Shown in pieces: positions 8,269-63,800 of a stretch of DNA of 64,000 nucleotides. The stretch covers positions 6,048,001 through 6,112,000 of the forward strand of contig CBDETY010000003.1 of assembly GCA_965243025.1 (NCBI GenBank), written 5' to 3'. Position 1 is the first letter of the stretch. Each line of letters begins with the position of its first letter. Origin of the DNA: Candidatus Latescibacterota bacterium. Its GTDB lineage: Bacteria; Latescibacterota; UBA2968; UBA8231. Both the position numbers and the translations under genes were made by a program. The notes under the pieces were generated by a model. It was not told where the DNA came from. It ran no database searches and worked only from the letters and a program-made list of their open reading frames with translations.

Positions 8269-9279
8269 ATGAGCAAGGGTAAGGATGTCTCGCTGGTTTA
8301 TTTGTACAAGCTGTTTCCAGACAATGCCGCAGCAGAGAGATGGATCGAGGAGATCAGATGGGGGAAAAGGGCAGACGGCCTGCCCGAATTCATACGCTGT
8401 CCGCACTGCGGCGGTGGCCGCGACCGCATCCGGGAGTGTCGCAACCGCAAGCCGATGCCCTACCACTGCGGAGCCTGCCGAAAACGGTTCAGCGTGCGCA
8501 TCGGAACGGTTTTGTACCGCTCCAGGATCTCCTATCGGAATTGGGCTTTCGGCATCTGGCTGTATCTGTCCGACCCGATGGGGATCAACGCCGTGCAGCT
8601 GAGCCGCAAACTCGAAGGAGTCAACTACCGGTCGGCTCTGTTCCTGCTGCACCGCCTCCGGGAAGGCTGGCCGGATTCCGAACCGCTGCGCAGCAGGTTC
8701 CTCGAGGTGGACGAAGCCTGGGTCGGAGGGAACGACAAGAAGAGGCACGCCGACAAGAAATTCGGGCGCAACTGGAGGAAGGGAAGGGTTCAGGTGCTCG
8801 GAGGCGCAGACCGGGAAAGCGGCAGGGCGGCCGCCGAGGTGATCTTCCATGCCGATCACGGGACCGTGGCCCCCTTCGTAGAGGATCACCTGGAAGAAAA
8901 TGAAACCCTGTGCACCGACGAGGCCCCGGTCTATGCGGCCTTGACCTGGCCGGGCACGCACCTGGTCGTCAACCACCAGAAAGGCGAATACGTCCGGGAC
9001 GAGGCCCATACCAACACCATCGAGGCGTTCTGGGCCAAGCTGAAGGCGGTTATTTTCGGGACCTACCGGCACGTGTCCCCCAAGTATTTTTCCCGCTACC
9101 TGAAGGAGATCGTCGGCAGGTACAATATCCGGGGGATGGCTCTCCTGGATCAGATGGAATTTCTCGTTCGAGGGATGCTGAATAAACGGCTGAGCTATCG
9201 GGATCTGCTGGCGACGGAGGTCCCTCCGACTCCCTTCACCCATCACCGATCAGGAGAAAGGGCGAGTCTTTTCGAGTAG
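8269..9279 (+). CDS. IS1595-family (ISXO2-like) transposase
   Basis: Zn ribbon CPHC...CGAC, KRFSVRIGTV, EVDEAWVGG, CTDE, HTNTIEAFW, YLKEIVGRYN; intact ORF. Confidence 0.92.
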   Translation: MSKGKDVSLVYLYKLFPDNAAAERWIEEIRWGKRADGLPEFIRCPHCGGGRDRIRECRNRKPMPYHCGACRKRFSVRIGTVLYRSRISYRNWAFGIWLYLSDPMGINAVQLSRKLEGVNYRSALFLLHRLREGWPDSEPLRSRFLEVDEAWVGGNDKKRHADKKFGRNWRKGRVQVLGGADRESGRAAAEVIFHADHGTVAPFVEDHLEENETLCTDEAPVYAALTWPGTHLVVNHQKGEYVRDEAHTNTIEAFWAKLKAVIFGTYRHVSPKYFSRYLKEIVGRYNIRGMALLDQMEFLVRGMLNKRLSYRDLLATEVPPTPFTHHRSGERASLFE

Positions 9280-9283
9280 TCGG

Positions 9284-9953
9284 CAAGGCGACATCTCGAT
9301 GCTGCCTGCCGTCTGGCGCAAAATGGTCAGTCTGTGCCTGTGGAATCCGCCGCATCGTCTCGTCGAGCTGGAGTCGCCGAACAGAAATGACCCCTGCTCA
9401 CCCCGGTGACGACGGATTTGCAGGCTCAGGGGAATCCGCGCATCCCCACCTCGATCCGAGTGGGCTTCCGATCCACGGTGCCGACTTCAGGGGGGAGGTA
9501 CCTGGGAGTCCGGATAGATCGGCGGATGCAGACTGCCTGGCTATTGGGAACGCAATAATATGCTGCTGCTCGTTGCCTCCGGTCAGTATCCTCCGTAGGA
9601 GAATACCCCGTCTTCCGCATCGGTCGAACTGAGTCTGGGGGTGGAAGGCGATCATTTCGAATGGTCAGCAAGGCGACATCCCTGCCGGCTGCCTCCCCTG
9701 TTGCGCCTGAAGCTCAGGCTGCACCCGAGGAATCCTCAGTCATCCTGCTTGCCATCTTGTCGACCAAACGGAATGATCTCCTCCTCACCTCGACGACGAC
9801 GGCTTTGCAGACCCCGGGGGAATTCGCGCATCCCCCTTCCTCGATCCGGGTGGGCTTCCGATCCAGGGTGCCAATCTGGCAGGTTTTTCCGGTCAGCACA
9901 CAATCATGTGGAATGGCCAGCCAGCCGACATCTCCATCTCCCGGCTAAACAGT
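9284..9953. repeat. Degenerate ~385-bp direct repeat units, right group
   Basis: CAAGGCGACATC near 9285 and 9668; CGACGG(A/C)TTTGCAG...GGAAT(C/T)CGCGCATCCCC...CTCGATCCG(A/G)GTGGGCTTCCGATCCA(C/G)GGTGCC at 9410-9482 and 9797-9872. Confidence 0.75.
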
Positions 9954-9993
9954 GGGACGGGGGATGTCCGTTTCTCTGCATTTTCTCTATTAT

Positions 9994-10002
9994 ATTATAC
10001 CA
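9994..10002 (-). promoter_or_regulatory. Extended -10 sigma70-type promoter pointing leftwards
   Basis: TGGTATAAT on the minus strand within an AT-rich block. Confidence 0.5.
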
Positions 10003-10042
10003 GATTTTCTTTAATTTCGCGGATGAGATTACTAAAATTGCC

Positions 10043-10067
10043 TTGTGTAATTAAATGCATATATCCC
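10043..10067 (-). mobile_element. Probable IS1595-like element terminus
   Basis: GGGATATATGCATTTAATTACACAA on the minus strand; abrupt GC-to-AT switch that cuts the adjacent gene mid-domain. Confidence 0.5.
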
Positions 10068-10707
10068 ACCAGAACAGGGGGGGCAGCCACATCTCCCAGG
10101 GGATGGACTCCCCCTCGGGCATCCCCTCGAAGAACCAGCGGATTCCCGGCTCGTCCCGGGGAACCATCCAGTCGGCGACGTAGGGATGAACCCGCTCGCC
10201 CCAGTCGTTTTCCGGGGAGGCGAGGTAACGGACCCCGGCGGTCGACGACAGCAGCATCAGGCAGAACCCGTTGCGCTCGCCGCCGGAGAAAGCCGTGGCG
10301 ACCACCATCATTATGTAGATGGTCAGCAGCTCTCCCCGGTCCAGGGCCAGCCTGCGGCGGATCGCTCCCAGCACCACCTGGACGACGCCGACCCACAGGA
10401 AGAACAGGAAGAAGGCGGCCGGAGCGTTCAACGAGCTCATCTGGCTGCCCATGACGACCAGGGCGCCCCAGGGCACGCCCACCCCGATCGCCAGGCTGAG
10501 TCCTGCGCCGATCGCCAGGGAGCGCGTCGTCACGCCCGATGCCGGCTGTTGCGATTCTTCCCGGGGCAATGGACCGGTTGCCTGGTTTGGAGTAGGGGCA
10601 AGGGGAGAATTTCCTTGAGGGGGGAGTTGCGTTAGGGGAAATTCCCTGCCCGCCGGTGGTGCCGAGTGAGTCGGCCGAAAGTTCCGGTTCACAAAACGTC
10701 CTTGCAA
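10051..10707 (-). pseudogene. Truncated N-terminal part of a polytopic membrane protein (DUF6785-like putative transporter); true start probably near 10570
   Basis: TTRSLAIG..., LDRGELLTIYIMM, ASPENDW, FFEGMPEGESIPWEMWLPPL, then an immediate stop inside the AT-rich terminus. Confidence 0.65.
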
Positions 10708-17080: not shown

Positions 17081-17327
17081 TATTCGAACGTGGCGAGGCC
17101 ACTATACCAAGGTGGCACTCGCCCAATGTTGAATCGATGCGCCAACATGGTAACATTTTCCAACCCACCGGGTTCAGTCTCTCCGTAAGTGTTTCTTGGA
17201 TTGCCTCATCTCGAGTCATCAACTCGGTGGCAATGATCCAAGCGATCCTGAGCTTGTTCTCGGGTGACAACACAGCGAAGACGGATTGAATTCGAGGTCT
17301 ACCCGGCCATTTCCCGGGTGGTCAGGC

Positions 17328-17387
17328 CCTCGCTGATGAGCCGAACCACCTCGCGCTCCCGCTCGCTCAGCTCCGGATGTCCGGCAA
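17328..17387 (-). repeat. 60-bp exact duplicate of part of the LuxR HTH coding sequence
   Basis: Identical to 19575-19634; encodes AGHPELSEREREVVRLISE. Confidence 0.9.
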
Positions 17388-19425: not shown

Positions 19426-20055
19426 CTACAGCGTGGTGAGGCCGGTTCTGATCGCGAACTTGGTCAAAGAAGCCACGCCGTGCCGGTCGAGCTTGTCCAT
19501 AATGCGCTGCCGGTGCGTGTGGACGGTGTTCTCGCTCAGGTTCAGTTGCCGGGCAATTTGCCGTGTCGTCAGATCCTCGCTGATGAGCCGAACCACCTCG
19601 CGCTCCCGCTCGCTCAGCTCCGGATGTCCGGCAAGTGTCTGCATCTGGTCGTACACGGCCCCGGCCAACTCCGGACTCAGGTAGGTGCGGCCGGACAGGG
19701 CCGCCCGCACCGCCCGCAGCACCTCGACCGAGGCCGCCCCTTTCACCACGTACCCCGAGGCCCCCGCCTCCAGCATGCCGGCGACGTACTGCGGGTCGTC
19801 GTGCACCGACAGGGCCACCACCTTCACCTCCGGGGCCTGGCCGAGAACCTGGCGCGTCGCCTCGACTCCGCTCAGGTCGGGCAGGGATACGTCCATGATC
19901 ACGACGTGCGGCCGGCAGGCCGCGGCCAGCTCCACGGCGGTGCGCGCGTCCCCGGCTTCCCCCACCACCTCGAACTCCCCGTCCTGCGCGAACAGGGAGC
20001 GCAGGCCCTTGCGCATCAGCTCGTGATCGTCCACCAGCACAACGCGGATCGTCAT
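19426..20055 (-). CDS. NarL/LuxR-family response regulator
   Basis: MTIRVVLVDDHELMRKG, VIMDVSLPDLSG, GYVVK, LSEREREVVRLI...SENTVHTHRQRIMDKL. Confidence 0.93.
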   Translation of the reverse strand: MTIRVVLVDDHELMRKGLRSLFAQDGEFEVVGEAGDARTAVELAAACRPHVVIMDVSLPDLSGVEATRQVLGQAPEVKVVALSVHDDPQYVAGMLEAGASGYVVKGAASVEVLRAVRAALSGRTYLSPELAGAVYDQMQTLAGHPELSEREREVVRLISEDLTTRQIARQLNLSENTVHTHRQRIMDKLDRHGVASLTKFAIRTGLTTL

Positions 20056-26964: not shown

Positions 26965-27774
26965 GTGAAAGCCGTGAAGCTTGGCGCTTCGACCATACCG
27001 TTCCTCGGGGAGCCTCTTACCCGTGAGGTGCTGGCGAAGTTCAGAGACGCCGGCATCGAGTCGCTGGAACTGTGCGACTACCACCCCAACTTCGACTTCG
27101 CCGACTCGGGGTTCCGCGCCTTCCTGCGACAGGCCCTTCCCGACATGGGGTTTCACCTCAACTCCATTCACATCCACCTGAAGAACCGCGACCCGGCCTG
27201 CGATCTGGCGAGTCTCGATGAGGCGGGGCGCCGCAAGGCTCTCGACGATCACAAACAGGCGGTGGACCTGGCTGCCGACCTCGGGGGCTGCATCCTGGTG
27301 ACCCACGACATCGCCATTCCCGAGCCGGAGGAGGCGCTGGGCATGGAGAAGCGGGCAGCTTTCCTGCAGAACCTCTGGGAGGTCGCCGGGTACGCCGCGC
27401 CGGTCGGCGTGCGGCTGGCGCTGGAAAACATCCCCCGCGGCTACACCGGGGATCCGCAACGACTGGTCGGCCTGCTGGAAGATCTCGGTGCCCCGAACGT
27501 GGGCGCGGTGATCGACACCGGCCACCGCAACCTCGGCGGCGATCCGGCCGCCGCTCTGAGAACGGTCGGGCGGCATCTGATCACCCTGCACCTGCACGAC
27601 AACCACGGCGAGCGGGACGAGCATCTGCTTCCGGGGCGCGGGAACATCGCCTGGGACGAAGTGAACCGGGCGCTCGCCGAAATCGGCTATGACGGGGTTT
27701 TCATGTACGAGATCAACCGGCCCGAAGACCTGCGGGAGCTGGCAGAGAACGCGGCGTGGATCCAGGGGTTGTAA
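26965..27774 (+). CDS. Sugar phosphate isomerase/epimerase (xylose isomerase-like TIM barrel)
   Basis: LALEN, IDTGH, LHLHDNHG.DEHLLPGRG, YDGVFMYE. Confidence 0.88.
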   Translation: MKAVKLGASTIPFLGEPLTREVLAKFRDAGIESLELCDYHPNFDFADSGFRAFLRQALPDMGFHLNSIHIHLKNRDPACDLASLDEAGRRKALDDHKQAVDLAADLGGCILVTHDIAIPEPEEALGMEKRAAFLQNLWEVAGYAAPVGVRLALENIPRGYTGDPQRLVGLLEDLGAPNVGAVIDTGHRNLGGDPAAALRTVGRHLITLHLHDNHGERDEHLLPGRGNIAWDEVNRALAEIGYDGVFMYEINRPEDLRELAENAAWIQGL

Positions 27775-27849
27775 ACGGCATGCCGCCGGGACGGGCGGTA
27801 CCGCCGTCCGCACAGCCGCTGCAGGTTATTTTCTTTCCCCCCATAAAAA

Positions 27850-28081
27850 GGGAATTACATCGAATGTTATGAAAAATCAGCAAGATGGATAGAATTGTGG
27901 TTCCCTGTCTGCTTGCCGGAAATCGGGGTGTTGACTGGCTGGCAAGTTCACATGATTGCGTGCAGAGTCATGCAATCTGGAAAGCGCACCTTCACGATTT
28001 TGGCGAATATGACGTTCATATCAGGCTCCAACTCCTTCTCTATCAATGCACTCGGCGTAACGCTACGGGGTTTCCGGAGAC
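27850..28081 (+). repeat. Left arm of ~230-bp imperfect inverted repeat
   Basis: Aligns block by block with the reverse complement of 34090-34325 (AGCAAGATG, GGTTCCCTG, CTGGCTGGCAAGT, CTGGAAAG, AACTCCTT.TCTATCA, CGGAGAC). Confidence 0.85.
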
Positions 28082-28111
28082 TGGTCTATTAGGTTATACC
28101 AGTTTTTTTTT
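28081..28111 (+). terminator. Possible intrinsic terminator at the inner end of the left arm
   Basis: CTGGT...ACCAG stem followed by a T9 run. Confidence 0.45.
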
Positions 28112-28169
28112 GAAATCGCGCGCCGCACCGGGTCCTTCCGCTCGCTGGTCCAGAGTCACCCAGGAGGTT

Positions 28170-28334
28170 GTTTCGCCGGCGGGTGCCGCCCCCATTACCC
28201 TCATCGACCGCGAAAAGCTGGTCGGCCTACTCATCCAGTACGGCATAGGAATCCGCAAACGAACGATTCAGTTGTTGGAAATGAACCGGGAAGCCTTCGC
28301 CCCCGAAGAGAAACTGAACGAAGAGAAACCATGA
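28170..28334 (+). pseudogene. Mrr-type restriction endonuclease C-terminal fragment
   Basis: GAAPITLIDREKLVGLLIQYGIG resembles the Mrr_cat C-terminal IxLIDGxxLxxL...IG motif; catalytic part missing. Confidence 0.6.
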
Positions 28335-28353
28335 GCAAAGAAGGAAAGAAGGG

Positions 28354-31300
28354 ATGATTCCAGCAGGAGTTCGTGTCAGACGCATTGCTGATCCGGGCCG
28401 GATCGGCGTAACAACGGGCAGAAGCCGAGAATTCGCTGGCAAAGAACGGGTTCAGGTGCAGTTTCCGGATCGGGCCGAGTTCATCGCTGTCGACCAAATC
28501 GAGGTTGTCCAAAGCGATGAGGATTATTGGGACCAGATAAAAAAGGGACGCTTTGGTCGTGCGCTGAACTTGCGGCAGACCCTCACCTTCCACCGCCTGA
28601 GTGGTCGGCTTGCCAACGTGATCTACAGTATGCAGACGACAAATACAGATTTTTTTGCCTACCAGTTCAAACCGATTTTCAAACTCCTGCATTCGCCCAC
28701 CAATGGGATACTGATAGCGGATGAGGTGGGTCTGGGAAAAACCATCGAGGCGGGACTGATCTGGACTGAGCTACGCGCCCGGTTCGACGCCCGAAGGCTG
28801 CTGGTGGTCTGTCCGGCTATGCTGCGAGAAAAGTGGCAAGAAGAGTTGCGAGAGCGATTCGGCGTTTCTCCACAACTAACCGAAGTAGATAACCTGCACG
28901 GTGTGTTGCGGGCGTCGGCCACGGGGACCGAACGCGGATTTGCCCTTATTGCCAGCATGCAAGGGATACGTCCGCGGCGGGGATGGGATGAAGTGGAGGA
29001 GCCAGAATCTCTGGGGCCAAGATCGAGGTTTGCGAGGTACTTGCAAGACGCCGCCTATGAAGAGGAGCTCATCGACCTGCTGGTCATTGACGAGGCTCAC
29101 TACCTTCGTAATCCCGAAACGCTGACAGCCAAGATTGGAACATTGCTGCGCAACGTGTCTGCCAATGTCGTCCTTCTTTCCGCAACCCCAATCCACCTTC
29201 ACAATGAAGATTTGTACCAACTGCTCCACCTTGTCGATGAGGACACCTTCGACAGTTCAGCCGACTTCGAGAGAATGGTTCAGGCGAACGAGCCGCTTAT
29301 TCAGGCGCGGGATCTGGTGTTAAGTGGAAGTACAACCCCTGAACGCTTGGTTGAGCTTCTTGTGCAGGCGAGAAGGCACGAACTTCTCGCGGAAAACCGG
29401 CAACTGCAGTCGCTGTTGAAGAACCCACCGGATGAAAGGGTGCTTACCAGCAGCAAGCAACGGCGGGCGATAGCCAACCGACTTGAGGGGGCCAATTTGT
29501 GGAGTCACGTGTACACCAGAACAAGGAAGCGCGACGTTCTAGAGCGACGCGTAGTCCGGGTACCCCGAAAGGAAGCCGTATTGCTCACTTCATTGGAGCG
29601 TGAGTTTTACGACCGGGTCACCGAAGTCGTAACGGACTACGCCAGCAGGGCAGCCATCCCGACCGGGTTCCTCTATGTGACGCCACAACGACAAATGGCC
29701 AGTTCGATGCCGGCCGCCCTCGAGGGATGGCTGTCGCGAAGGAAGCCTTATGAGGAGGAGGTTGCCGAGGATGTGGGTGAGTCGATAGAAACCAACGGCA
29801 GCGGTCTTGGTGACGTTCCCCCTCTCATCAACGAACTGGTGGACCGCTTGGCAGGGGAGTTCCATGTGCAGGAACTGCGAGCGGCCGACACAAAGTACCG
29901 CAGGCTCTCAACGGTTTTACGCAGGTTTCTCACCGACCACGAGGAAGAGAAGGTCGTTGTGTTCGCCTACTTCCGGCCGACTCTCGACTACCTGTACGAG
30001 CGTCTTGCCGAGGATGGGGTCTCCTCGATCGTGCTCAAGGGGGGTGAGGGCCTAGATAAACAAGAGGTGATCCGGACTTTCCGGAAACCGGAAGGTCCCC
30101 GGGTGCTTTTATCGTCGGAGGTCGGCAGTGAGGGGATCGACCTGCAGTTCTGCCATGTTCTTGTGAACTACGACCTCCCCTGGAACCCAATGCGGGTCGA
30201 ACAGCGGATCGGTCGACTAGATCGAATTGGACAGAAGTCAGACCGGATTTCCATCTGGAACCTGTTCGCGGCAGACACCATCGACGAGCGGATCCACGAC
30301 CGCTTGTATATGCGCCTTGATCTGTTCAAAATAGCGCTTGGGGACCTTGAGGCCGTGCTCGGGGAACCGATCCGAGAGCTCACGGTGAATCTGTTGTCCG
30401 GGAGACTGTCGGATGCAGAGCGAAATGAGATGATCGAGCAGACGGCGCAGGCGCTCGTAAACCGAAGGCAGGAAGAAGAGAAGCTTGAGCAGGATGCGGC
30501 GGGCCTGATCGACCACGGGGACTACATCCTCAACGAGGTAGAAGCTGCCCGAGAACTGCAGCGGCGTATTTCTGAGCAGGATCTGGAAGCGTATGTGCGC
30601 GACTTCCTGGACGCGCATTACCCCGGGTGTAGATGGCGGAGCGAGGAGGCGGGCAGGTATGAATTATGGCTTTCGATGGACGCCAGGAATGATCTGGAGG
30701 TCTTCGTCGATAGGGAGAATCTCCGTGGCCTCACGTCGCTGACCCGGACCAATCTGCGAGGAACGAGGTGCAAGTTCGAGAACCGCACAGCGAGTGCTCG
30801 CCCGGGTCAAATCGAGTCGGTGAGCCAGTTTCATCCTCTGGTACGCTGGGTCAGCCATGAGCTGGCGAAGCAGGAATCGCCGCTCCGGGCGGCTGCGGCC
30901 ATTCTCCATCAGTCCGAGCTTTCTGAGGTAGCCGCAGGGGACTATGCCTTCTTCGTGGATCTTTGGGACGTCCAGGGAGTCAGGGACGTCGAGAAGCTGC
31001 ATTTCGAGGTGGAATCACTGGGGGACAGCAGGAACCTGCCGGAGGACCTCGCGGAGCAACTGGTGGTAACGGCTAGTCGGCGAGGACGAGACTGGGTGAC
31101 CGCCGCGGCGGATATGGACTTGGATCTCCTCATCAATGGCATCGAGTCGTGTTTGGCGAAAGCCGAGGAGAAGCATGAGGATTTCGTCAGATCCCTGAGT
31201 GATGAGAACCTGGATAGGGCGGACGTGCAGCTCCAGAACCTGGACCGGCACCACGAGGGGCAGATGCGAAAACTTACCGAAATTCGCGCCGGCCATGAGG

Positions 31301-31464
31301 CTGCCGGGCGTCGATCCTTGGTGCGGGCAACGCAAGGGCGGATTCAAGCCTTAAAATACCGCGTAGAGACCAAACGGAGACGGATCGAAGCCGGAAAAAA
31401 ACAGGTGTCTCATCGTAACGAGATCGCAGTAGGGATTCTGCGAGTCGAGGAGGATGGAGTATGA
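28354..31464 (+). CDS. SNF2/RapA-family helicase
   Basis: LIADEVGLGKT, LVVCP, IDEAH, LSATP, KVVVF, GSEGIDLQF, NYDLPWNPMRVEQRIGRLDRIGQ. Confidence 0.93.
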   Translation: MIPAGVRVRRIADPGRIGVTTGRSREFAGKERVQVQFPDRAEFIAVDQIEVVQSDEDYWDQIKKGRFGRALNLRQTLTFHRLSGRLANVIYSMQTTNTDFFAYQFKPIFKLLHSPTNGILIADEVGLGKTIEAGLIWTELRARFDARRLLVVCPAMLREKWQEELRERFGVSPQLTEVDNLHGVLRASATGTERGFALIASMQGIRPRRGWDEVEEPESLGPRSRFARYLQDAAYEEELIDLLVIDEAHYLRNPETLTAKIGTLLRNVSANVVLLSATPIHLHNEDLYQLLHLVDEDTFDSSADFERMVQANEPLIQARDLVLSGSTTPERLVELLVQARRHELLAENRQLQSLLKNPPDERVLTSSKQRRAIANRLEGANLWSHVYTRTRKRDVLERRVVRVPRKEAVLLTSLEREFYDRVTEVVTDYASRAAIPTGFLYVTPQRQMASSMPAALEGWLSRRKPYEEEVAEDVGESIETNGSGLGDVPPLINELVDRLAGEFHVQELRAADTKYRRLSTVLRRFLTDHEEEKVVVFAYFRPTLDYLYERLAEDGVSSIVLKGGEGLDKQEVIRTFRKPEGPRVLLSSEVGSEGIDLQFCHVLVNYDLPWNPMRVEQRIGRLDRIGQKSDRISIWNLFAADTIDERIHDRLYMRLDLFKIALGDLEAVLGEPIRELTVNLLSGRLSDAERNEMIEQTAQALVNRRQEEEKLEQDAAGLIDHGDYILNEVEAARELQRRISEQDLEAYVRDFLDAHYPGCRWRSEEAGRYELWLSMDARNDLEVFVDRENLRGLTSLTRTNLRGTRCKFENRTASARPGQIESVSQFHPLVRWVSHELAKQESPLRAAAAILHQSELSEVAAGDYAFFVDLWDVQGVRDVEKLHFEVESLGDSRNLPEDLAEQLVVTASRRGRDWVTAAADMDLDLLINGIESCLAKAEEKHEDFVRSLSDENLDRADVQLQNLDRHHEGQMRKLTEIRAGHEAAGRRSLVRATQGRIQALKYRVETKRRRIEAGKKQVSHRNEIAVGILRVEEDGV

Positions 31465-32921
31465 GCAAGGCAGGTCGGTCTGACACGCTTTTTCAACGAA
31501 TCATCGAGAAGTTTAGAGGCACCGGATCCGGCGTTACAACAGACCCTGGCTCAAGAACCAAGGACACACTATCTCCGGACAAGGCACCTGATGATGTCAG
31601 AGCCAAAGCCATGCAACCGAGCGTCAAAGCTGCAGATGATGCTGCCCTATACTCCGAGCTGGTAGTTGGAATCGATTTTGGCAGTTGTTGGACAAAGGTT
31701 ATTGTTCGGGACATAAACCGCCAGAGGACTTGGGCGGTCCCATTCAAAGAAACAGAGTCGACAGGGGCCTATCTGCAGTACACCGCCATCGAGGGGTTGG
31801 CGGAGGGGCAACCCAAGCTGGTCGAGGCACTGGCAACCGGGGGGGATAGCCTCAAAGTCCAGTTACTTGCCTGTGCAAGGGAAGGGACCGTTTCCCCGCC
31901 TACTACCGAAGAGATTGGGAGCGTTGTTTTCCTGGCTTTGATCCTTCGCAAGGTAAAGGAGTATGTCCATAACCTGCCGTTGTATAAGGACGGCAGGGTG
32001 GACTGGCACCTCAACGTGGGGGTGCCTGTGTCGAGCAACAGCGCCGAGGCGGAGCTACGCCTCTTCCGGCGGATCCTCGTCGCAGCGTGGGGAATTGCCT
32101 CGCGCAGTGCCATCCAGGAATCCGACGTTTGCCAGGCTTTGCAAAATACAGACAAGGACGAGAACTGGACGGGAGTCCACCCGGAGAAGATCAACGCGGT
32201 GCCCGAAGTCGCCGCCGAGGTCGCCGGCTATGCGAATCGCGACCGACCGGAGGGACTGCAGTTCCTTATCGACGTGGGAGCAATGACTTTGGATATGGCT
32301 GCGTTTATTGCCCACGAGAGAGAGGACAGGGATCACTACGAGCTGTTATGCACAGATGTCAGGCTTTTTGGCTGTAGTGAGTTTGTCAAGACACAAGCGG
32401 ATGTTTTCTCAGACCTCGTGCACAAACAGGGACTGGCGAACTATGGGATGTCCCGGATGCCCACCCGCTTCGAAGAGTTCTTGCCGACTGATGAAGCCTT
32501 GCAAGAGGCGTTCGAGACTAGCCAGCGGGGATTTTGCAGAAAGGTGGCGGGGGCGGTTGCCAAAGTTATCATCGAGACCAAAATGAATCGATACCCTCTC
32601 GCGAGGGAGTGGGAGCAGGGGCTTCCTACCCTCCTGTGCGGGGGCGGCAGTTCCAGTCAAGTCTACGAAAATGTGCTCAGAATATGCGAAAGCAAGTTCG
32701 ACCAAATGGGGTGGCAATGGCGAGGGTTACCGAAGATTCCCTTGCAAAAGTCAGGTGAACTGGAAGCCCCTTTCCTCGGACCTGATGATTTCCATCGCCT
32801 GGCCGTAGCACACGGGTTGAGCCATCACGTCTGGGATATTGGTGAGGTCCATTTGCCCGGGGAGATTCCAGATGGTGAAGGCCCACCGGTACGCGAGCGT
32901 CCTCCGGAGATCACGGTGTAA
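31461..32921 (+). CDS. Actin/Hsp70-fold ATPase-like protein
   Basis: Phosphate-1 VGIDFGSCWTKV, VPE, phosphate-2 IDVGAMTLD, adenosine LCGGGS; ATGA overlap with the helicase stop. Confidence 0.75.
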   Translation: MSKAGRSDTLFQRIIEKFRGTGSGVTTDPGSRTKDTLSPDKAPDDVRAKAMQPSVKAADDAALYSELVVGIDFGSCWTKVIVRDINRQRTWAVPFKETESTGAYLQYTAIEGLAEGQPKLVEALATGGDSLKVQLLACAREGTVSPPTTEEIGSVVFLALILRKVKEYVHNLPLYKDGRVDWHLNVGVPVSSNSAEAELRLFRRILVAAWGIASRSAIQESDVCQALQNTDKDENWTGVHPEKINAVPEVAAEVAGYANRDRPEGLQFLIDVGAMTLDMAAFIAHEREDRDHYELLCTDVRLFGCSEFVKTQADVFSDLVHKQGLANYGMSRMPTRFEEFLPTDEALQEAFETSQRGFCRKVAGAVAKVIIETKMNRYPLAREWEQGLPTLLCGGGSSSQVYENVLRICESKFDQMGWQWRGLPKIPLQKSGELEAPFLGPDDFHRLAVAHGLSHHVWDIGEVHLPGEIPDGEGPPVRERPPEITV

Positions 32922-32983
32922 CTCCGTTTCCCACGTGGGAAAAATCATTCTGCTGTGAGCCCTGCATCATCCATCGATAGGCC

Positions 32984-33979
32984 GTGCTTCTGGTAATGCC
33001 TGGGAACGGATTTCCAATGAACTCTCCTCCCCCGGGCGCTTCCCGACACGGCGACAGTCGCATTGTTGTCGCCCGCGACAGTTCCGACGCGGTCCGCACG
33101 ATTAACCGACAGATCGGGACCATCGGCGATTTTGCCCGGGCAACTAACCCCGATGCAATGCCGGCGCCCAAGGTAACCGACACGGTATCCGTCTACGACC
33201 TCGACACCCGCTCCCTCCACTTAATCCTCGTGCACCGTCTCGACATCCGGCCACAACCCGCACCGGCCGTCCGCAACATGGTCGTCTTCTCGGAACCGGC
33301 CTACGCCCCTTGTCGAGTTGAGAAGCTCCAACTCGCCACCCCCGCTTACTACCGCGATCACGAAGATCTTGAGCCCGGAATTCGTGACCATCACGACGGC
33401 ACCCTCACCCGGGACGGCACGCGGTGGGCAAGCTCGATCATGGGTGGGACCGTGAGCGCCCGCCTTTCGTTCTCCTCCTCAAGCGAACCCTGGGTCTACT
33501 GCGCCTCCCATTACTGCACCGACAGGGAGCTTCGCCGTCTGCGGAGCAAATTCTGTGGCAAGTACGGCTATTCCGCGGCTACCCTGATAGAGGATGCCGA
33601 TGCCTTCGCCACATGGCTCGGCGTCGACTTCGCTCTGGGCTTCGACAAGACGGCCGATGTCTCCCTCGGTCCGATTGACGAAATCTGTTACGCGCGCAGC
33701 AGCTACACGACGAACCTGTGGGATGGATCCGGTCCCATCGACACCTTCGTTCACGTCTACCACGGTCCGGTCAACTATCAGGACGTGTCCGGCCGCGTCG
33801 ACAGGCAGGAACAGTGGTTTGACCCGAACGCCGGTCCCATGGCATGGTTTACCAAGAAGACCTCGTTCAGGAACCAGAGCGAATACCGCTTCGCGGTCAC
33901 GACGCTTGGCACTCCCGTGCAGCCGAAACACTACGTCGCCGTGTCGCCGGAATTGAGCGCCCTGACTTCCGCCCTGTGA
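32984..33979 (+). CDS. Hypothetical protein with a distant DUF2971-like C-terminal motif; start uncertain
   Basis: LATPAYYR..E.GIRD, WVYCAS, GPVNY, FTKKTSFRNQSEYRF. Confidence 0.55.
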   Translation: MLLVMPGNGFPMNSPPPGASRHGDSRIVVARDSSDAVRTINRQIGTIGDFARATNPDAMPAPKVTDTVSVYDLDTRSLHLILVHRLDIRPQPAPAVRNMVVFSEPAYAPCRVEKLQLATPAYYRDHEDLEPGIRDHHDGTLTRDGTRWASSIMGGTVSARLSFSSSSEPWVYCASHYCTDRELRRLRSKFCGKYGYSAATLIEDADAFATWLGVDFALGFDKTADVSLGPIDEICYARSSYTTNLWDGSGPIDTFVHVYHGPVNYQDVSGRVDRQEQWFDPNAGPMAWFTKKTSFRNQSEYRFAVTTLGTPVQPKHYVAVSPELSALTSAL

Positions 33980-34089
33980 GTTTCCTTGGAAGCAGTGCCC
34001 ATCTGGGGGATAGGAACCGGAGATCCAGACCCTCCCCCCTCGACTGGTCGTGGCTCTCGACCCTCGGTGTCAATTTGGCATTCCCCCGG

Positions 34090-34325
34090 GTCTCCGAATA
34101 GTCTTTGCCGTCATGCCAAGTACCCTGATAGACAAGGAGTTAGAGCCCGACGTTACTATCAAATTCACCGAGATGGGGAGATGGCCCTTTCCAGAATTGC
34201 CTGACCTTCAGCACCTGATCCTATGGACTTGCCAGCCAGCCGACATCCCAGATTTCCCGGCAGAACTGCAGGGAACCGCACTCTATTCATCTTGCTAACT
34301 TTTCATAACATTCGACGTAATTCCC
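34090..34325 (-). repeat. Right arm of ~230-bp imperfect inverted repeat
   Basis: Reverse-complement match to 27850-28081. Confidence 0.85.
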
Positions 34326-34432
34326 ATTAAAAAGCTTCCCGACCGGGGCTCCGGAGTTCCGGCCCGAAGCATCCGGCATCCCGGCGGACCGGGAGCTCGA
34401 ATCGCCGCCTTTACATGTGAGAAAGGAAGAGA

Positions 34433-35278
34433 ATGGACAGCCAGCTGTTGCCGACGACGAATGGGGACGGTCTGCCGGTCGTTCCCATGACCGAGGGGCA
34501 GAGATACACCTTCGACGTCAAGGGTTGGATCTGCCTGCCGGGGCTTTTGAGCGATGACGAGTTGGGAGCGGTCCTCGAACATCAGCACAAGCTGATGGAG
34601 GAACCGGAGTCCCTGCCGCCGGAAGAGCGGAACTCGGTGGGCGGCCCCTCGCAGGTCATGCTCGACCACCCCGTGCTCGCCGGCGTTCTCAACGAGATCG
34701 TGTCCCACCAGGGGCTGGCCAGCGAGGACTGCTACGGTTTCCGCTTCGAGCGCACCCGCACCGAACGGAGGCCCTTCGGCAACGACAATTTCAACGCCCA
34801 CGGGGGGAGCGGATACTTCAACCTCTGCGGAGATTCCCACCTCTACCAGATGGTGCCCGGGAAGATCCACGCCGGCCTCACGCGCGTGGTGTGGGAGTTG
34901 AACGAGGTGGCCTGTGGAGGCGGGGGCACTCTGTTCATCCCGGGAAGCCACAAGGCGGCGTTCGAGCTGCCGGACGAGGTCAGCGGCCGGGACAGCCCCC
35001 TGTGGGAGACCTACGCCTGCCCCCCGGGATCTGTCGTCGTCTTCACCGAGGGCATCTGCCATTCCGGGTCGACCTGGACCAACAGGGAATGGGACCGCCT
35101 CTGCCTGTTCAGCCTCTACAACACGGTGAACTGCCGTTGGGGAAGGAGCAGCGTGCCGCCAGAAGTCGTGGCCGCGATGCCGCCGAAGCGCCGCACCCTG
35201 TTCCGCGACGTGTGGGTCGCCCGCGGAAAACCGATCGACGACAACCTGTATTTCGACGAGAAGAACTTCGCCGCCTGA
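34433..35278 (+). CDS. PhyH-family Fe/2OG enzyme, HGG variant
   Basis: FDVKGW, NAHGGSG, GGTLFIPGSHKAAF, PGSVVVFTEGICHSG. Confidence 0.85.
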   Translation: MDSQLLPTTNGDGLPVVPMTEGQRYTFDVKGWICLPGLLSDDELGAVLEHQHKLMEEPESLPPEERNSVGGPSQVMLDHPVLAGVLNEIVSHQGLASEDCYGFRFERTRTERRPFGNDNFNAHGGSGYFNLCGDSHLYQMVPGKIHAGLTRVVWELNEVACGGGGTLFIPGSHKAAFELPDEVSGRDSPLWETYACPPGSVVVFTEGICHSGSTWTNREWDRLCLFSLYNTVNCRWGRSSVPPEVVAAMPPKRRTLFRDVWVARGKPIDDNLYFDEKNFAA

Positions 35279-54840: not shown

Positions 54841-55099
54841 GCCTCTTCCGGCCGTGGGGGCCGGCCGCGCTTTGCACGTAATCTCGAGGGATGGATCAAG
54901 TGCCAGCCTGGCTTAATTCCCGTTCCGCACGAGCGCCGATCCATCCCGCTCGCCACGTCCGCTCCCTCCCCGGGTGCCCCAACCCGGCTCGGTCGCGGCC
55001 TTTCACCAGGGAGGCAGCAGGGACCGCGAATTCCTCGAGGGCGGTGTGGCTCTTCCCTCCTCGAACAATTCCCGTCGACCTCTGACCAGGGGAGCAGCC

Positions 55100-57832
55100 G
55101 TGCATCTTCCAAGGCTCTCGATCACCGTGCCATGGGTCGTCTTCGTCCTCGCCTCCGGGGCTTCGGGGCAGTTCATCTCCAGGGACTACTACCCCCTGTG
55201 GGGAGAGGCGTACGAGAACTACGGATCGATCGGGTATCGGGATGCGCTGCAGCCGATCCTGGGAACGGGAGGCGGCGGGACCAGGGACACCGCTCCAGTC
55301 GATGGCTTTACGCTGGAGTTGGAGCGTCGACAGTACGATCCGTTCGGCAATTACCTGGCCGATGGCCTTGACGTGTTTCGCCTGCAGGAGTTCCGCGGCA
55401 TCGCGCCGAGCCGGGGGAGTCTTCTGTTCGAGAGCGACCTGTCCAACAGCATTTTCCAGAACCTGATGATCGCCAGCGATGACTTTCGCGGCTGGTCCAA
55501 CCGCGTTCTCATCGGGCATGCGATACGCACGAAGTTCACCTCGCTGACGTTCAGCCGGGCGCGGTTCAGCGGGATTCGGTGGGACGGGGCCACCCGGCGC
55601 AACCGCTTCACCGTTCTCGGGTCCAGGATCTCCAACCCCACCCCGCGGTCCGAGGAAACGGGTGCGGATCGGCATTCGGCCTATCTGTTCGGGGGTCGGT
55701 GGGAAAACACCGTCGGAGATCTCCTGACGATGGGGCTTTCTTACGTGACCACCTTCCGCAGCGATGCTACCCGGCGCAAGGGAGGGCGTATTCAGCGCGG
55801 GGTGGTTCCCGTTGATCTGGGTGGGGGAGGTCCGGTAGAGGATCTCTATGTGATCTTCAGTGACGACAGTCCGGAGGATGGGTCTGGCGCACAAGTCCAC
55901 GCGTTGGAGGTGTACATCGACGGGGTGCGCGCGAACCTCCAACCCGAGGTGGTGTTGATACCGCAAATCCATACCTATACCAAGGCGAGTCCCCTCGTCA
56001 TAGAAAAATTGCCGCTTCGGACTCAAGTACTGTCCTACGTGCGTGCCGACGGGCCATGGCTGTCTGAAGCGCTCAGCCACAACACTGACATAGGTCCTCT
56101 TTCGCGTCTTGAAGCGATTCTGAGACAGAGGGGGGCCGACGACAGGACGAAGAATCCACGCCACGGCCCTCCTCCACATCCTGTCGCGCTGATCGAGGGA
56201 CAGCCCCTGGAGACCAGCGGCACCGATGTAATACTGTTCAAATACCGGATACCCCCGAAGGCGCGATCGGTCCAGTTCCGGGCTCTGGTTGCAAACGACT
56301 ACTCGATCGATGTGGCTACGCGCGTGGGGTACTGGGCGGACTGGCACAATGTCCGGCGTGCGGCGGGCAACGTGCGCGACCGTTCCAATCTGGGCTGGGT
56401 ATCCTTCGATTACGGGTTCCCCACGGGCCTCGCGACGTATGGGACAGACGCTGAACTCGATATTCTCGGCGCAAAGATTCGTGGGGAGATCGTCAACAAC
56501 CTCGGGTATTATACCTATCCCGGCATCTCCGGGGCGTGGCACAAGCAGAGCACGCGAGCCTACTTCGTCAACGCATCACGCCGTTTCTCACGGGTCCATG
56601 CAGGTGCTGAACTGTTCGATCTTCCTTCGACCTACAGGACCTCGTTGGAGGCTGTGGATCCGGGATCGCCCAACGCGGTCGCGAAGCTCTACCATCTGGT
56701 CGAGGACAACGATGACCGGGATGAATGGCCCGACGATGACGAATGGCCGAACAGCCCGGATCCGCGCGACGGGGACGGGATTTTCCCCGGGCTGGACGAG
56801 GATGGCGACGGGATTATCGATACCAACGTCAACGACAACCAGGTGCCGGACTACCAGGAGCCGTTCCTGATGTACTATGTGGATCCGGATGGATACACGT
56901 ACGGCGACGACTTCGACAACAACGGGACAGTGGATGTCCGGCAGGACGACAACCGCCCCGACTACCCGTACGATCTGGATCGGCGCGGACGGCATCTGTT
57001 CGCCCGGCTCGACCTGACTCCCACACTGAAGAATACGGTCGGCTGGTACCGCCTCAGGAGCGTCACCGGCGGGGGGCGCAACAAGGCGCTGTACTCGAAG
57101 CTGCACTATGGGGTCGGACGCGGGGGGGTGGGCAGGATCGATGTGTATTACAGGATCAAACGGGTGAACGACGACATACCGGCGGACATCCGGGGCGGGT
57201 ACCTTCAGTTTGCGGGATTCGACGCGGTGGGCGCGATCCAGCCGGATACGCTGCCCATGCGCAACAGCCTGGTCAACCTGTTGTTCGTGGAGACGAGGTT
57301 TACGGGTATCCCGCATCTGAATGTGTCGTCCAAGCTGCGCTATGAAGTCAATGACCGTCGGCGCACGGAGTTCGACGACGGCTCGGTTCAGGAGAAGAGC
57401 CGGGATCGTTGGCGAGCGCTGGTAGCGCGGGCTGACTACAAGTGGAAGCTCGGGCAGCTGACGGTCATGCCGATGTTCAAGTTCCTGACCGAGCACAGAG
57501 AGGTACCGTCTTCGGGACGGCACCCACTCCTGCACACCCGCCATGTGATTCCCATCTTCCGGATGGATTACGCAGTGACCTCGGGCAATGTATTGCGAGC
57601 GGGGATCCAGGGCTTTGGGATGCTGAAGGAACGATACCGGAATGTCGCCTGGCCATTTGTCGCGTATGATGCGACGAGTCAGGTGTTTCTGTTTCAGAAT
57701 CGCGGGAATTACTCCGGATACGACGTGCGGCTCAACCTCGGGTTCCGCCGCCAGAGCGTAGATACCCGGAGCGCTCTCAGTCGCAGGTCCGCGTCCTCGA
57801 AGGAAGTGTTCCTGCAGCTGTACTTCGAATAG
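55100..57832 (+). CDS. Large predicted outer-membrane protein with acidic Ca-binding repeat region, paralog 1
   Basis: GTG at 55100 after AGGGGAG; signal peptide; YDPFGNYL, LVEDNDD, FPGLDEDGDG, PDYQEPFL, YPYDLD; amphipathic beta-strand C-terminus VFLQLYFE. Confidence 0.7.
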   Translation: MHLPRLSITVPWVVFVLASGASGQFISRDYYPLWGEAYENYGSIGYRDALQPILGTGGGGTRDTAPVDGFTLELERRQYDPFGNYLADGLDVFRLQEFRGIAPSRGSLLFESDLSNSIFQNLMIASDDFRGWSNRVLIGHAIRTKFTSLTFSRARFSGIRWDGATRRNRFTVLGSRISNPTPRSEETGADRHSAYLFGGRWENTVGDLLTMGLSYVTTFRSDATRRKGGRIQRGVVPVDLGGGGPVEDLYVIFSDDSPEDGSGAQVHALEVYIDGVRANLQPEVVLIPQIHTYTKASPLVIEKLPLRTQVLSYVRADGPWLSEALSHNTDIGPLSRLEAILRQRGADDRTKNPRHGPPPHPVALIEGQPLETSGTDVILFKYRIPPKARSVQFRALVANDYSIDVATRVGYWADWHNVRRAAGNVRDRSNLGWVSFDYGFPTGLATYGTDAELDILGAKIRGEIVNNLGYYTYPGISGAWHKQSTRAYFVNASRRFSRVHAGAELFDLPSTYRTSLEAVDPGSPNAVAKLYHLVEDNDDRDEWPDDDEWPNSPDPRDGDGIFPGLDEDGDGIIDTNVNDNQVPDYQEPFLMYYVDPDGYTYGDDFDNNGTVDVRQDDNRPDYPYDLDRRGRHLFARLDLTPTLKNTVGWYRLRSVTGGGRNKALYSKLHYGVGRGGVGRIDVYYRIKRVNDDIPADIRGGYLQFAGFDAVGAIQPDTLPMRNSLVNLLFVETRFTGIPHLNVSSKLRYEVNDRRRTEFDDGSVQEKSRDRWRALVARADYKWKLGQLTVMPMFKFLTEHREVPSSGRHPLLHTRHVIPIFRMDYAVTSGNVLRAGIQGFGMLKERYRNVAWPFVAYDATSQVFLFQNRGNYSGYDVRLNLGFRRQSVDTRSALSRRSASSKEVFLQLYFE

Positions 57833-57844
57833 TGGGTATGCGCC

Positions 57845-60784: not shown

Positions 60785-60805
60785 TCCTGGTGATGACGGT
60801 TCAGG

Positions 60806-63800
60806 ATGCGCTGTATCGTGCGTAAAGACCCAGGATCGGAAGAGGCAGGGAGCCAGCGCGTCCGTCGAGGGGGGTGTGGGGCTCTCGCCCTCCATCTGCT
60901 GGCGATGACGGTCGCGGTAGGGGGGGAGGCCGGATCCGTTGAGGCGCAGGAGGAGGAGGTGTGGACGGCGGAGCGTCGGTGGAAGGAGACGCCGGCGGTG
61001 CCCCTGGTCGTGACTGATCGGATGTTCCTGGGCGACCCGGGGGAGGTGTACCGGAACTACGCCTTCACCGGGTATCGCAACTACGAATCGCTGTCGGGTG
61101 TGCCGCCGTGGTCAAACATCTACGATCCGCTCGGCAACTTTCTGATCAGCGGCCGGCAAGTGGCCACCTGGTACGCCGAACAATCCCGGACGGGTGACAT
61201 CCGCGGTGGAAACAGTCGTATCCAATCCAATCTCGCCAACTTTCACGGGGTCTTGTCCATGGGCGGGCAGAGCTACTCGGGATGGGCGAGCAATCTGATC
61301 TTTTCCCAGGCTGGCACCAGAGGTTTCTGGACCCATGGGATCATCACGCGGTTCACACCGCTGACGCTGAATCGAGTGTCGCTGCAGGGCGCTCGGGGGG
61401 ACATTCTGACCCCCTTCGGCGATGCCCTGAGCCTGATAGCCTCCTACCAGTACCTGGGCTATGCGGGCGGAAGAGGACTGCACGGAGGTGGCGACGATTC
61501 GGCGATCATCCTGGCCGGACACTATGAGCGCGAGACGGGGCCGTTGCGGTTGGGCGCCACCTTTGCCAACCTGCACTTCTTCGATGTACGCACTCCGATG
61601 ACCGACTTGAAGGGGGATCTGCACGCCACTCAGCCGATCCCGTCCCTCATTGCCGTGCGGATCTCGGACGATTCGCCGAGCGATGGACGGGGCGGTCCCG
61701 TCGTGTACGGGGTGCAGCTGGTGGTCAACGGTGAACCGCGCCCGGATATAGCTCCGGACGTGATACGCCGGGATCTGGACAACAGGTTCACGGTGGTGGG
61801 AACGACGACGCTTCAGGGGACTTTCCGGCCCAGCTTCTACTACGATCCCACCGCAGGGAGCAACCCGAACAACCCCTACTTCGAGATGGAAAAACCGCTG
61901 TATGCCGACTACCTGTTTCGGAAGGATCACGCGCAGAATCTCGCCGACGACGACCCGGACAATGATGAGGAGGTGGCCGAATCCGCCGACGTGGATCGGC
62001 TGGTGAGGTACATCAGCCTGGAAGACCCGAGGCAGGTTCAGCGCGCGGATGGGACCGAGGCCCTGGTGTACTACTTCAATCTGGAGGGGTTGACCCACGT
62101 GCGCTCGGTGGAGGTGGAGGCGTCGCTGGGTAATGACTACCGGATCGAGGTCGCCGACATCGGCGTGGTGAATGCGAGGGAAGGCACCCCCCATGACGAG
62201 CGCTACGAAGCGCCGTTCTACAAGACGGTGCGTCGTGCGGAAGGGAACGTGCAGGATCTGTCGAATATCGAGCGGATCCGGATACCGATCGGCAATGAGA
62301 CCGGGCAATCGGTGTGGGGTACGAACATGGCCCTGGACCTCCCAGGTCTGCGGGTGCGCGGGGAGTTTGCCGAGAGCATCAGGTACAGCCGCTACCGGGA
62401 CGGAGTGCCCGGGCAGGAGCTGCCTTCCATCCCGGGGAGCACCGACCCGGACCCTCCCCTCTACGAGGGCAACGGCGAACGTCACGACGAAGAGGACCGG
62501 GCCGCGTACGTTCAACTCGAGCGGGAGACGGCGGGCTACGGTTTCGGGGCAGAGCTGTTTTCCATCGGGCCCAGGTTCAACGAGCGATTGACGAAGCGGC
62601 CCGGCGATGTCGGGGGGCTTGGGGGAGGCCAGCCCTACGTGAGGAACAGGACGACCTTCTTCTCTCTTGTCGAGGACAATGACGATGGGGACGCCAACCC
62701 GGAGCTCAAGGTCCGCGGCGCCGCCCCCCGTGATCTGGCCGTGTTCCCCGGACAGGATGCGGACAACGACGGTATCCCGGATACCAACCGCAACCTGAAC
62801 GGGCTGCCGGATTATCTGGAGCCCTTCCTGCTTTATCAGGTGGATCCGGATGAATACGTGTACGGTCTGGATTTCAACAACAACGATGTCGTGGACGAGC
62901 GCGAGGACGACCGCAAGGAAGATTTTCCGTATGACCGGGATCTGCGGGGGGGGCATGCTTATGTCCGCTGGAAGCCATGGACAGGCGCAGAGGCCACGGG
63001 GGGCTGGCTGCAATCGCGTCAGATTGCCGGCGGAGGCCGCAACGACCAGCGCTACCTCCGGCTGCACTACAGCGGCGAGCGTCCCGGGGTGGGGGAATGG
63101 CTGATCGAGAACGAGCTGAAGCGGGTGTGGGACGATGTGCCGGATGACGTGTTCAGCTGGACCGCGGCGGCCGCGAACGTAGACCAGAGATTCCTCAGGA
63201 ACGATGAGGGGCGGTTCGCGTACTTCCCGACGTTCACCTTCGATCCGCTGCACTACCGCAACAGCCTGGCGAACCGGTTGTACGTATCGGGCACCCTGAG
63301 GTGGCTTCCGGGCTGGCGGATCCTCACCCGGATGAAACTGGAACACAACCGGCAGTATGGGGGTCGGCTCGGGGACGGTTCGGAGCAGGCCAGGGACCGG
63401 ATCCGTTCCCTGGCGTGGGTGCAGCAGGCCGACTACACGTGGCGCTGGGGAAAATTGACGCTGCAGCCGGCCCTGAAAGGACTCTGGCTGAAGCGGACCC
63501 GGCAGCAGGGAAAGCGGCCGTTGGACCACACCCACACGGTCGTCCCCCTGTTCAAGGCTCGCTATGAACTGTCTCCGGCGACCGAGGTGAAGGCGGGTCT
63601 CCAGGGGTTCCCGGGCTGGTGGTTCGAGGAAACCCACCTGGCCGATCCGCGCAACAGCTTCAAACGGCGGACGACGATGGTCTTCCTCTCCAACATCTCC
63701 GATTACTCGGGGTACAGGATTTCCACCAATCTGGGGTTCAAGCAGGACAGGCTGGAGTACGCGGACGAATTTCGTTTTCTCGAGAGCTTCGACACGACGG

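Follow-up and report, generated by a model that had tools for sequence, protein, structure and literature searches.

How does a block of DNA that carries no transposase of its own come to sit, with matching inverted ends, between two host genes? This question is raised by a 6.5-kb element at positions 27850-34325 of a 64,000-nucleotide stretch from a Candidatus Latescibacterota bacterium (contig CBDETY010000003.1, positions 6,048,001 to 6,112,000; the whole stretch is called the window, and feature coordinates refer to it unless a genome handle is given). Our preferred answer, to which we assign a probability of about 0.65, is that the element is a non-autonomous member of a family of giant IS1595-type cargo transposons and was moved whole by the transposase of another copy.

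Ends and insertion site of the 6.5-kb element

The two termini of the element are identical at 25 of 26 positions (GGGAATTACATCGAATGTTATGAAAA at 27850 and the reverse complement ending at 34325), and both start with GGG, which agrees with the terminal inverted repeats of about 25 bp starting GG that belong to the end features of the IS1595 family (PMC8101967, PMC5704250). With up to three mismatches allowed, the terminal 17-mer occurs twice in the window, at both outer ends, compared with a mean of 0.18 in 100 shuffles. Alignment of both arms revealed 176 identical positions out of 240 (73%, E 6e-39), making the arm pair the longest inverted repeat within the 64-kb window. The G+C content of the element is 57.1%, that of the flanks 65.6% and 65.8%. 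Furthermore, neither a transposase nor an integrase was found by Pfam or NCBIfam in the open reading frames (ORFs) of the element that were scanned, and a profile built from the genome's own 18 full-length IS1595 transposases, which scores two transposase-bearing arms at 576 and 589 bits, detected no IS1595 transposase relic in its six frames. Matching termini, long inverted arms, lower-GC cargo and the lack of a transposase or integrase had all been described in an earlier note on this DNA, and they hold up. Lacking an own transposase with the zinc ribbon and DDE_Tnp_IS1595 domain of the family, the element can be at most a non-autonomous IS1595 derivative; nor is it a composite transposon of two complete insertion sequences, with no inner termini and no transposase present. 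The features of the locus are as follows.

26965..27774, + strand: left host gene, xylose-isomerase-like TIM barrel
27842..27849, + strand: left target-site copy, CATAAAAA; the empty sites in runs X6 and X7 read CGTAAAAA, 7/8 alike
27850..27889, + strand: left terminal inverted repeat, conserved 40 bp, 36/40 columns invariant over four arms
27850..28084, + strand: left arm, 235 bp; similarity to the remaining three arms ends at 28084
27925..27943, + strand: sub-terminal motif common to the ends of transposase-bearing giant elements
28085..28121, - strand: reversed copy of the TGGTATAA promoter-like block of family ends; similar copies lie within other giant elements
28149..28334, + strand: C-terminal fragment, ~60 amino acids (aa), of an Mrr-like restriction endonuclease (PADLOC PDC-S02 match)
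28354..31464, + strand: SNF2-family helicase, 1036 aa, DrmD/RapA-like (Pfam SNF2-rel_dom and Helicase_C; PADLOC DrmD)
31461..32921, + strand: Hsp70/actin-fold ATPase-like protein, 486 aa (alignment motifs, Foldseek); 4-bp overlap with the helicase stop
32923..34325, + strand: 1.4-kb block (third ORF and right arm), 90% like the right end of a 73.5-kb sister element
32984..33979, + strand: third ORF, 331 aa, unnamed family, possibly a divergent ADP-ribosyltransferase fold; structural matches weak
34028..34325, - strand: right arm, ~300 bp; 298 bp match the sister's left arm at 80%
34286..34325, - strand: right terminal inverted repeat, conserved 40 bp
34326..34333, + strand: right target-site copy, ATTAAAAA, 6/8 to the left copy
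34433..35278, + strand: right host gene, PhyH-like (weak PhyH match)
8269..9279, + strand: IS1595 transposase outside the element, above the NCBIfam cut-off, D-D-N-E intact

The left and right target-site copies agree at six of eight positions. Contigs of run X1, perhaps the source sample, and of X5, from another study, span both junctions without difference, so the mismatch is real, and an assembly error as its cause is ruled out by contigs of X1, X5 and X8. The near-duplicated flank described before is a real 6/8 match and not a perfect duplication, and its AT-richness is no rule, as six other duplications in the genome hold 2-6 G+C of 8.

Insertion of the element as one unit, with empty sites in relatives, is supported by four comparisons. 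In both congeners, G001 and G002, the flanking host genes are neighbours, separated by 166 and 269 bp of colinear intergenic sequence, i.e., the site is empty in two out of two, and contigs of X6 and X7, two of the four runs compared, skip the whole element and read CGTAAAAA at the site. Since this empty site is 7/8 like the left flank, the right target copy is probably the changed one. The sponge-metagenome sample of X6 is also that of run X8, where the element occupies this site with ~2-3% difference: its left junction shows one difference, its right flank is identical, and a single contig with arm, gene fragment and helicase start has 10 differences and 5 gaps in 435 bases. Two points, the decayed duplication and the presence of the element at this site in diverged strains, make it likely that the insertion is old and now passed on vertically.

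Sister element, giant relatives and the transposase

The same ends bound a 73.5-kb sister element in this genome (G000:C3:3002950-3076421), which has a perfect 8-bp duplication, TTTGCAAT, and splits a gene of a multi-copy paralog family, the rejoined halves aligning at 83% with a paralog across the junction. The sister has its right end in common with the 6.5-kb element (1.4 kb at 90%), and no IS1595 transposase lies within 5 kb of either of its ends. Genome-wide, a profile of these ends places the terminus only at the four outer positions of the two elements; a further end of this type, with a third flank, was present on one contig of X6. The cargo of the sister is low in GC and mixed, and several of its ORFs resemble transposases of other insertion sequences.

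A motif from the arm interior led to ten further ends, located 0.7-1.3 kb behind IS1595 transposase genes. Eight of these form the paired ends of four elements (34.4, 44.9, 48.5 and 40.4 kb), in which both arms contain an outward-facing transposase and the 8-bp duplication is perfect in all four cases. A ninth pairs with a very different end that has no transposase, giving a 186-kb element (G000:C3:852184-1038178) with ends only 16/26 alike, a perfect duplication (CCAACATC) and a transposase in the left arm only. For the tenth, at G000:C3:3354081, no partner was found. Perfect 8-bp duplications are therefore found in six of the seven paired elements of the genome (the sister and five out of five others), and the arm transposases form a series from both arms (four elements) via one arm (the 186-kb element) to none (two elements). 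Altogether, 19 of the 23 PF12762 matches in the genome fall inside the seven paired elements, and D-D-N-E is intact in all 18 full-length IS1595 transposases. The transposase-bearing modules show no inner inverted repeat, and their two copies differ by up to 18%. Among 20 ends examined in G001 and G002, the terminus rule placed 11, and one pair at a plausible distance was obtained, a 25.9-kb pair of G001 with a perfect duplication; two G002 ends share an 8-mer but are 2.3 Mb apart and face away from each other.

The arms tie the 6.5-kb element to these giants: alignment of the arms and a hybrid end in G001 demonstrate that its ends are homologous to transposase-flanking ends. Matches to transposase-bearing arms cover arm positions ~60-119 and ~239-295 (E values as low as 5e-12), and the G001 end combines this terminal type with a promoter block that is still present, an approximately 40-bp block carrying an inward TGGTATAA promoter-like site in other ends and lacking in all four arms of the 6.5-kb element and its sister. 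Over these four arms, 36 of the outer 40 columns are invariant and 112 of 204 in the interior (p 1.4e-5). Between the two right arms, 20% of interior sites differ; in the shared ORF next to them the figures are 13% for synonymous and 4.7% for non-synonymous sites. In the simplest reading, the arm is likely a 26-40-bp transposase site followed by a drifting relic. In the earlier note, ordinary transposase binding sites did not account for the long arms; about half of their length aligns with the long non-coding ends of the family, and about 120 bp in mid-arm is still unmatched.

Which enzyme moved the element is the next question, for which the earlier note had pointed to the transposase at 8269. 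This gene is intact as stated, scoring above the NCBIfam cut-off with D-D-N-E kept, and it is the right-arm gene of the separate 40.4-kb element (G000:C3:6017644-6058067), whose end lies at window 10067. The right arm of that element (window 8269-10075) consists of the outward transposase, ~790 bp of non-coding end with repeated blocks, and the duplication ACCAGAAC. Its end agrees with that of the 6.5-kb element at 11/26 bases, the lowest value of the 12 other genome ends compared, and the proposed specific partnership was rejected on this end sequence, not on activity. Ends of the GGGAATTAT type share 14-16/26 terminal bases with the 6.5-kb element. Movement in trans by the transposase of another copy, as the earlier note proposed, is likely, though an inference.

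The terminal pattern was present in three of 168 genomes of the phylum, all of one genus, with single ends in G001 (G001:C11:1264930; L035, L010) and G002 (G002:C1:718542; L036). No transposase was detected in 20 kb read inward from these two ends. DNA comparison with 40 relatives gave no autonomous partner. In metagenome contigs of the Joint Genome Institute (JGI), the exact end pattern had no match and a relaxed pattern had five chance matches, all in coding sequence of unrelated genes. Either the cognate enzyme was lost, or the GGGAATTAT clade cross-recognises these ends. Such cross-recognition is plausible on sequence grounds, because the ends of the 186-kb pair (16/26) are mismatched as much as this end is with GGGAATTAT-type arms (15-16/26).

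Additional observations concern the family as a whole. The unpaired ends at G000:C3:3354081, 3013101 and 4268279 have no partner with a shared 8-mer within 300 kb, and two of them lie inside larger elements. Internal IS1595 transposases of a separate clade were present in all five transposase-bearing giants, one or more in each; seven such transposases were located inside giant elements (G000:C3 near 879252, 953947, 1025339, 1325702, 1957868, 4259446 and 6033025), sharing ~1.85 kb whose downstream boundary is the same in all. Two identical copies, each at least 4.4 kb long, exist of a third IS1595 element that starts with GGAACTTATACC (G000:C3 near 671304 and 1276113) and is likely a recent mover. 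The TGGTATAA promoter-like block recurs as an internal module at eight or more sites in other elements, often together with a shared upstream stretch, and a second motif (window ~32927-32990) recurs at four other sites. Elsewhere in the window, an 86-bp direct repeat (17302-17387 and 19549-19634, 92% identical, 2247 bp apart) lies near a GC dip at 20-21 kb, and the region 55000-63400 carries three tandem paralogous genes at ~3 kb spacing (repeat families D1, D2, D6, D10 and D14).

Cargo genes

The cargo had been called defence-like, a description that fits its content of an SNF2 helicase, a partner of Hsp70/actin fold and a restriction fragment, with the defence role suggested by context. The gene fragment matches positions 329-384 of the 390 positions of PADLOC PDC-S02 (E 5e-12), and three out of three plasmid matches are annotated as restriction endonuclease (E 4e-3 to 6e-3); Mrr is the label that we assume for it. 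The helicase matches the PADLOC DrmD model over its full length (E 3e-272, 904 bits), which likens it to DISARM class 1. In contrast to that system, whose further genes we take to be drmA, drmB, drmC and a methyltransferase, the helicase remains below the NCBIfam DrmD cut-off (402 bits, cut-off 610), no other cargo ORF matches a DISARM model of PADLOC or NCBIfam, and it is constantly partnered by the Hsp70/actin-fold protein.

This partner, the second ORF, has the nucleotide motifs and, in a predicted model, the two-lobed fold of the ASKHA (Hsp70/actin) superfamily. Its motifs GxDFG, PE, DVGA and GGGS, which we take to be phosphate-1, phosphate-2, adenosine and connect, are kept across 19 aligned sequences. 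The predicted model has a predicted local distance difference test (pLDDT) score of 79, and the top Foldseek rows are Hsp70/DnaK (E 2e-9, probability 1.00, TM 0.36-0.46); Atlas gives an Hsp70 cluster at 0.92, and no Pfam, NCBIfam or PADLOC model matches. The protein ends ~35 residues past the last ATPase motif and is not an Hsp70 chaperone proper, because there is no room for a substrate-binding domain.

The pairing of helicase and ATPase extends far beyond this element. Among 14 loci (four of five plasmid-collection matches and ten of ten genome matches), a full-length helicase ortholog adjoins the ATPase relative in 12, the contigs of the other two being only 1.6 and 2.3 kb long. The hosts include a cyanobacterium, alphaproteobacteria, Syntrophus, Bacteriovoracaceae, Pirellula and Acidobacteria. 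In three annotated plasmid loci the annotated neighbours include restriction endonucleases, Hachiman HamA, an AbiEii-family toxin, cas2, a GIY-YIG nuclease and transposases. Judged from this neighbour context, the helicase-ATPase pair is predicted to be an unnamed defence module. At two loci (L083 and L091) the pair is immediately followed by a second SNF2 gene and one encoding ~1570 aa, a gene order that we presume to be DISARM-like.

The family of the third ORF comprises at least 239 unnamed proteins, with a near-invariant R113 and invariant C162, Q287 and E289 (Q-x-E); in the sister this ORF carries a frameshift. No Pfam match was obtained in 42 homologs and no sequence match in the PDB. 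The predicted model of a homolog with 90% identity has a pLDDT of 92 and gives nine structural rows with Z of only 2.0-2.4, most of which, going by their names, are presumably ADP-ribosyltransferase-fold proteins; as a lead only, the third ORF possibly has a divergent fold of this kind. At five family loci with homologs of the third ORF, neither an end nor a transposase was found within 1.5 kb.

Weighing the explanations, and published precedents

In the explanation that we prefer, a transposase from another copy would bind each arm at its outer 26-40 bp, move the block as one piece and duplicate 8 bp of target. The remaining arm would be a drifting relic of the family's long non-coding end, devoid of the promoter block, and the insertion would then have aged, with decay of the duplication and vertical inheritance at the same site. 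Several observations weigh against this explanation. The duplication of the 6.5-kb element is imperfect; the empty-site joints of X6 and X7, both of diverged strains, cover just 28-30 letters on their short side; no transposase was found beside an end of this type in the genomes and contigs scanned. End type tracks transposase clade among the arms having a transposase, which suggests that this type once had its own enzyme. Parts of the arm interior are a further difficulty, since a stretch of ~120 bp in mid-arm is unmatched in the four transposase-bearing arms compared and a 20-bp interior block is well kept (16/20 columns), so that the interior may not be wholly neutral. Moreover, the left arm stops at 235 bp, the others reaching ~300 bp, and directly abuts the reversed promoter block and the gene fragment, which looks like an internal deletion, and a nested, frameshifted IS1595 transposase lies ~10.5 kb inside the sister. 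The latter was rejected as a partner, being frameshifted and having its own end of another type. A different history could be built on such points, namely that a larger self-moving transposon with an internal transposase shrank to 6.5 kb after insertion and that the present form never moved. The truncated left arm with its junction to promoter block and restriction-gene fragment, the decayed duplication, and the internal separate-clade transposases of the five giants, together with the frameshifted one of the sister, would all be accommodated. We nevertheless regard this history as unlikely: all four arms of the type share the same deletion with no transposase adjoining, the sister has a perfect duplication with such ends, and a longer form at the site was not seen. 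In addition, the diverged strain in X8 has the same junction of arm, fragment and helicase, so that any deletion must be old.

The well-kept parts of the arms could also be taken to mean that the interiors are functional, acting as structured RNA or as an array of sites for proteins, needed to pair ends tens of kilobases apart. Both end types, in three species, retain a 20-bp sub-terminal motif, ~120 bp are specific to this end type, and a consensus fold can be drawn. However, folding z-scores of the four arms range from -0.3 to +1.6 on both strands, two-sided change affects only four of 36 predicted pairs of the consensus fold, and Rfam gave no match for the arms at E 1. The interior diverges faster than neighbouring synonymous sites (20% vs 13%), and the promoter-like block is deleted, making such a function very improbable. 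A sigma-70 scan revealed no site in the left arm and, near the right arm, one 9/12 site at chance level. Finally, each arm could be an independent MITE (a miniature transposable element with inverted repeats), the two flanking the cargo as a composite. The length of the arms (235-330 bp) lies within the 50-500 bp given for MITEs, and cargo movement by pairs of MITEs is known (PMC10969869), but no inner terminus exists in the window at up to three mismatches, the end profile finds termini only at the four outer positions in the genome, and the duplication flanks the pair and not single arms. This idea, which the earlier note had itself named as a way to fail, is thereby largely refuted, and the arms are not separate MITEs.

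Elements of this general kind have precedent in print. Furuta et al. 2010 described restriction-modification units that have no transposase and are bounded by imperfect inverted repeats (60/65 bp in Xanthomonas oryzae and 26/26 bp in Neisseria), with 8-bp duplications, an empty site in a relative and sometimes a truncated gene inside; they left action in trans open (PMC2853133). The 6.5-kb element resembles these units in its defence-like genes, imperfect inverted repeats, empty site and truncated gene, and its 8-bp flanks match at 6/8. It differs in its longer arms (235-330 bp with those of its sister), in their link to a defined IS1595 family of this genome, in having a 73.5-kb sister with the same ends, and in a cargo that is no restriction-modification pair; in the Neisseria unit, one gene carries a transposase motif (PMC2853133). 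MTnSag1 (tISSag10) and tISCpe8 are IS1595 elements of 1.7-2.0 kb with 25-bp repeats, 8-bp duplications, cargo and their own transposase (PMC5704250). Terminal inverted repeats of about 25 bp and the presence of cargo genes are shared with them, as is the 8-bp duplication in the case of the sister (6/8 in the 6.5-kb element itself), whereas the element described here has no transposase and its relatives measure 34-186 kb with outward transposases in their arms (PMC5704250). Cargo mobilisation by MITEs is known from IR148 with TnAs1, E622 and the integron MITEs of Acinetobacter, and likewise concerns transposase-less DNA with cargo moved in trans, as would be the case here; unlike in those systems, each arm has one terminus and is not a MITE, and the enzyme family would be IS1595 (PMC10969869). 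Composites of the Tn5 type are similar to the transposase-bearing relatives in having two inverted modules around cargo, one of which may lack active enzyme, but no inner inverted repeat was seen in the modules of the relatives, and both modules of the 6.5-kb element are reduced to ends (PMC10969869). Hsp70-like domains are described in CoCoNuT systems, but not as this helicase-ATPase pair (PMC11090510). In mostly open-access literature, no description was found of giant or transposase-less IS1595 elements of this build, nor of the helicase-ATPase pair.

Overall, the element is real and probably an old, transposase-less derivative of a giant IS1595-type family, and alone it is an old passenger with precedent in print. 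New are its connection to a defined family, the occurrence of such ends on a 73.5-kb unit, the pairing of mismatched ends and the unnamed cargo pair. A wider version of our reading can be put forward only tentatively, at less than even odds: the IS1595 transposases of the genus may act as a shared transport system that pairs any two outward ends, even those 60% alike and lacking a nearby transposase, for cargo of 6-186 kb, one such unit carrying an undescribed defence system of an SNF2 motor and an Hsp70/actin-fold ATPase.

The IS1595 cargo elements described in the sources cited measure ~2 kb, and here transposase-less ends bound 73.5 kb and mismatched ends 186 kb. The two transposase-less elements, with ends of the GGGAATTACATCG type, give a direct test of which part of the long end matters. 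For the helicase-ATPase pair, which lacks a family model and is conserved across several phyla, the cargo is one more mobile copy. If 40-bp ends with a single borrowed enzyme are enough, they would provide a small system for moving large DNA and a simple route for symbiont genomes to shuffle whole defence islands.

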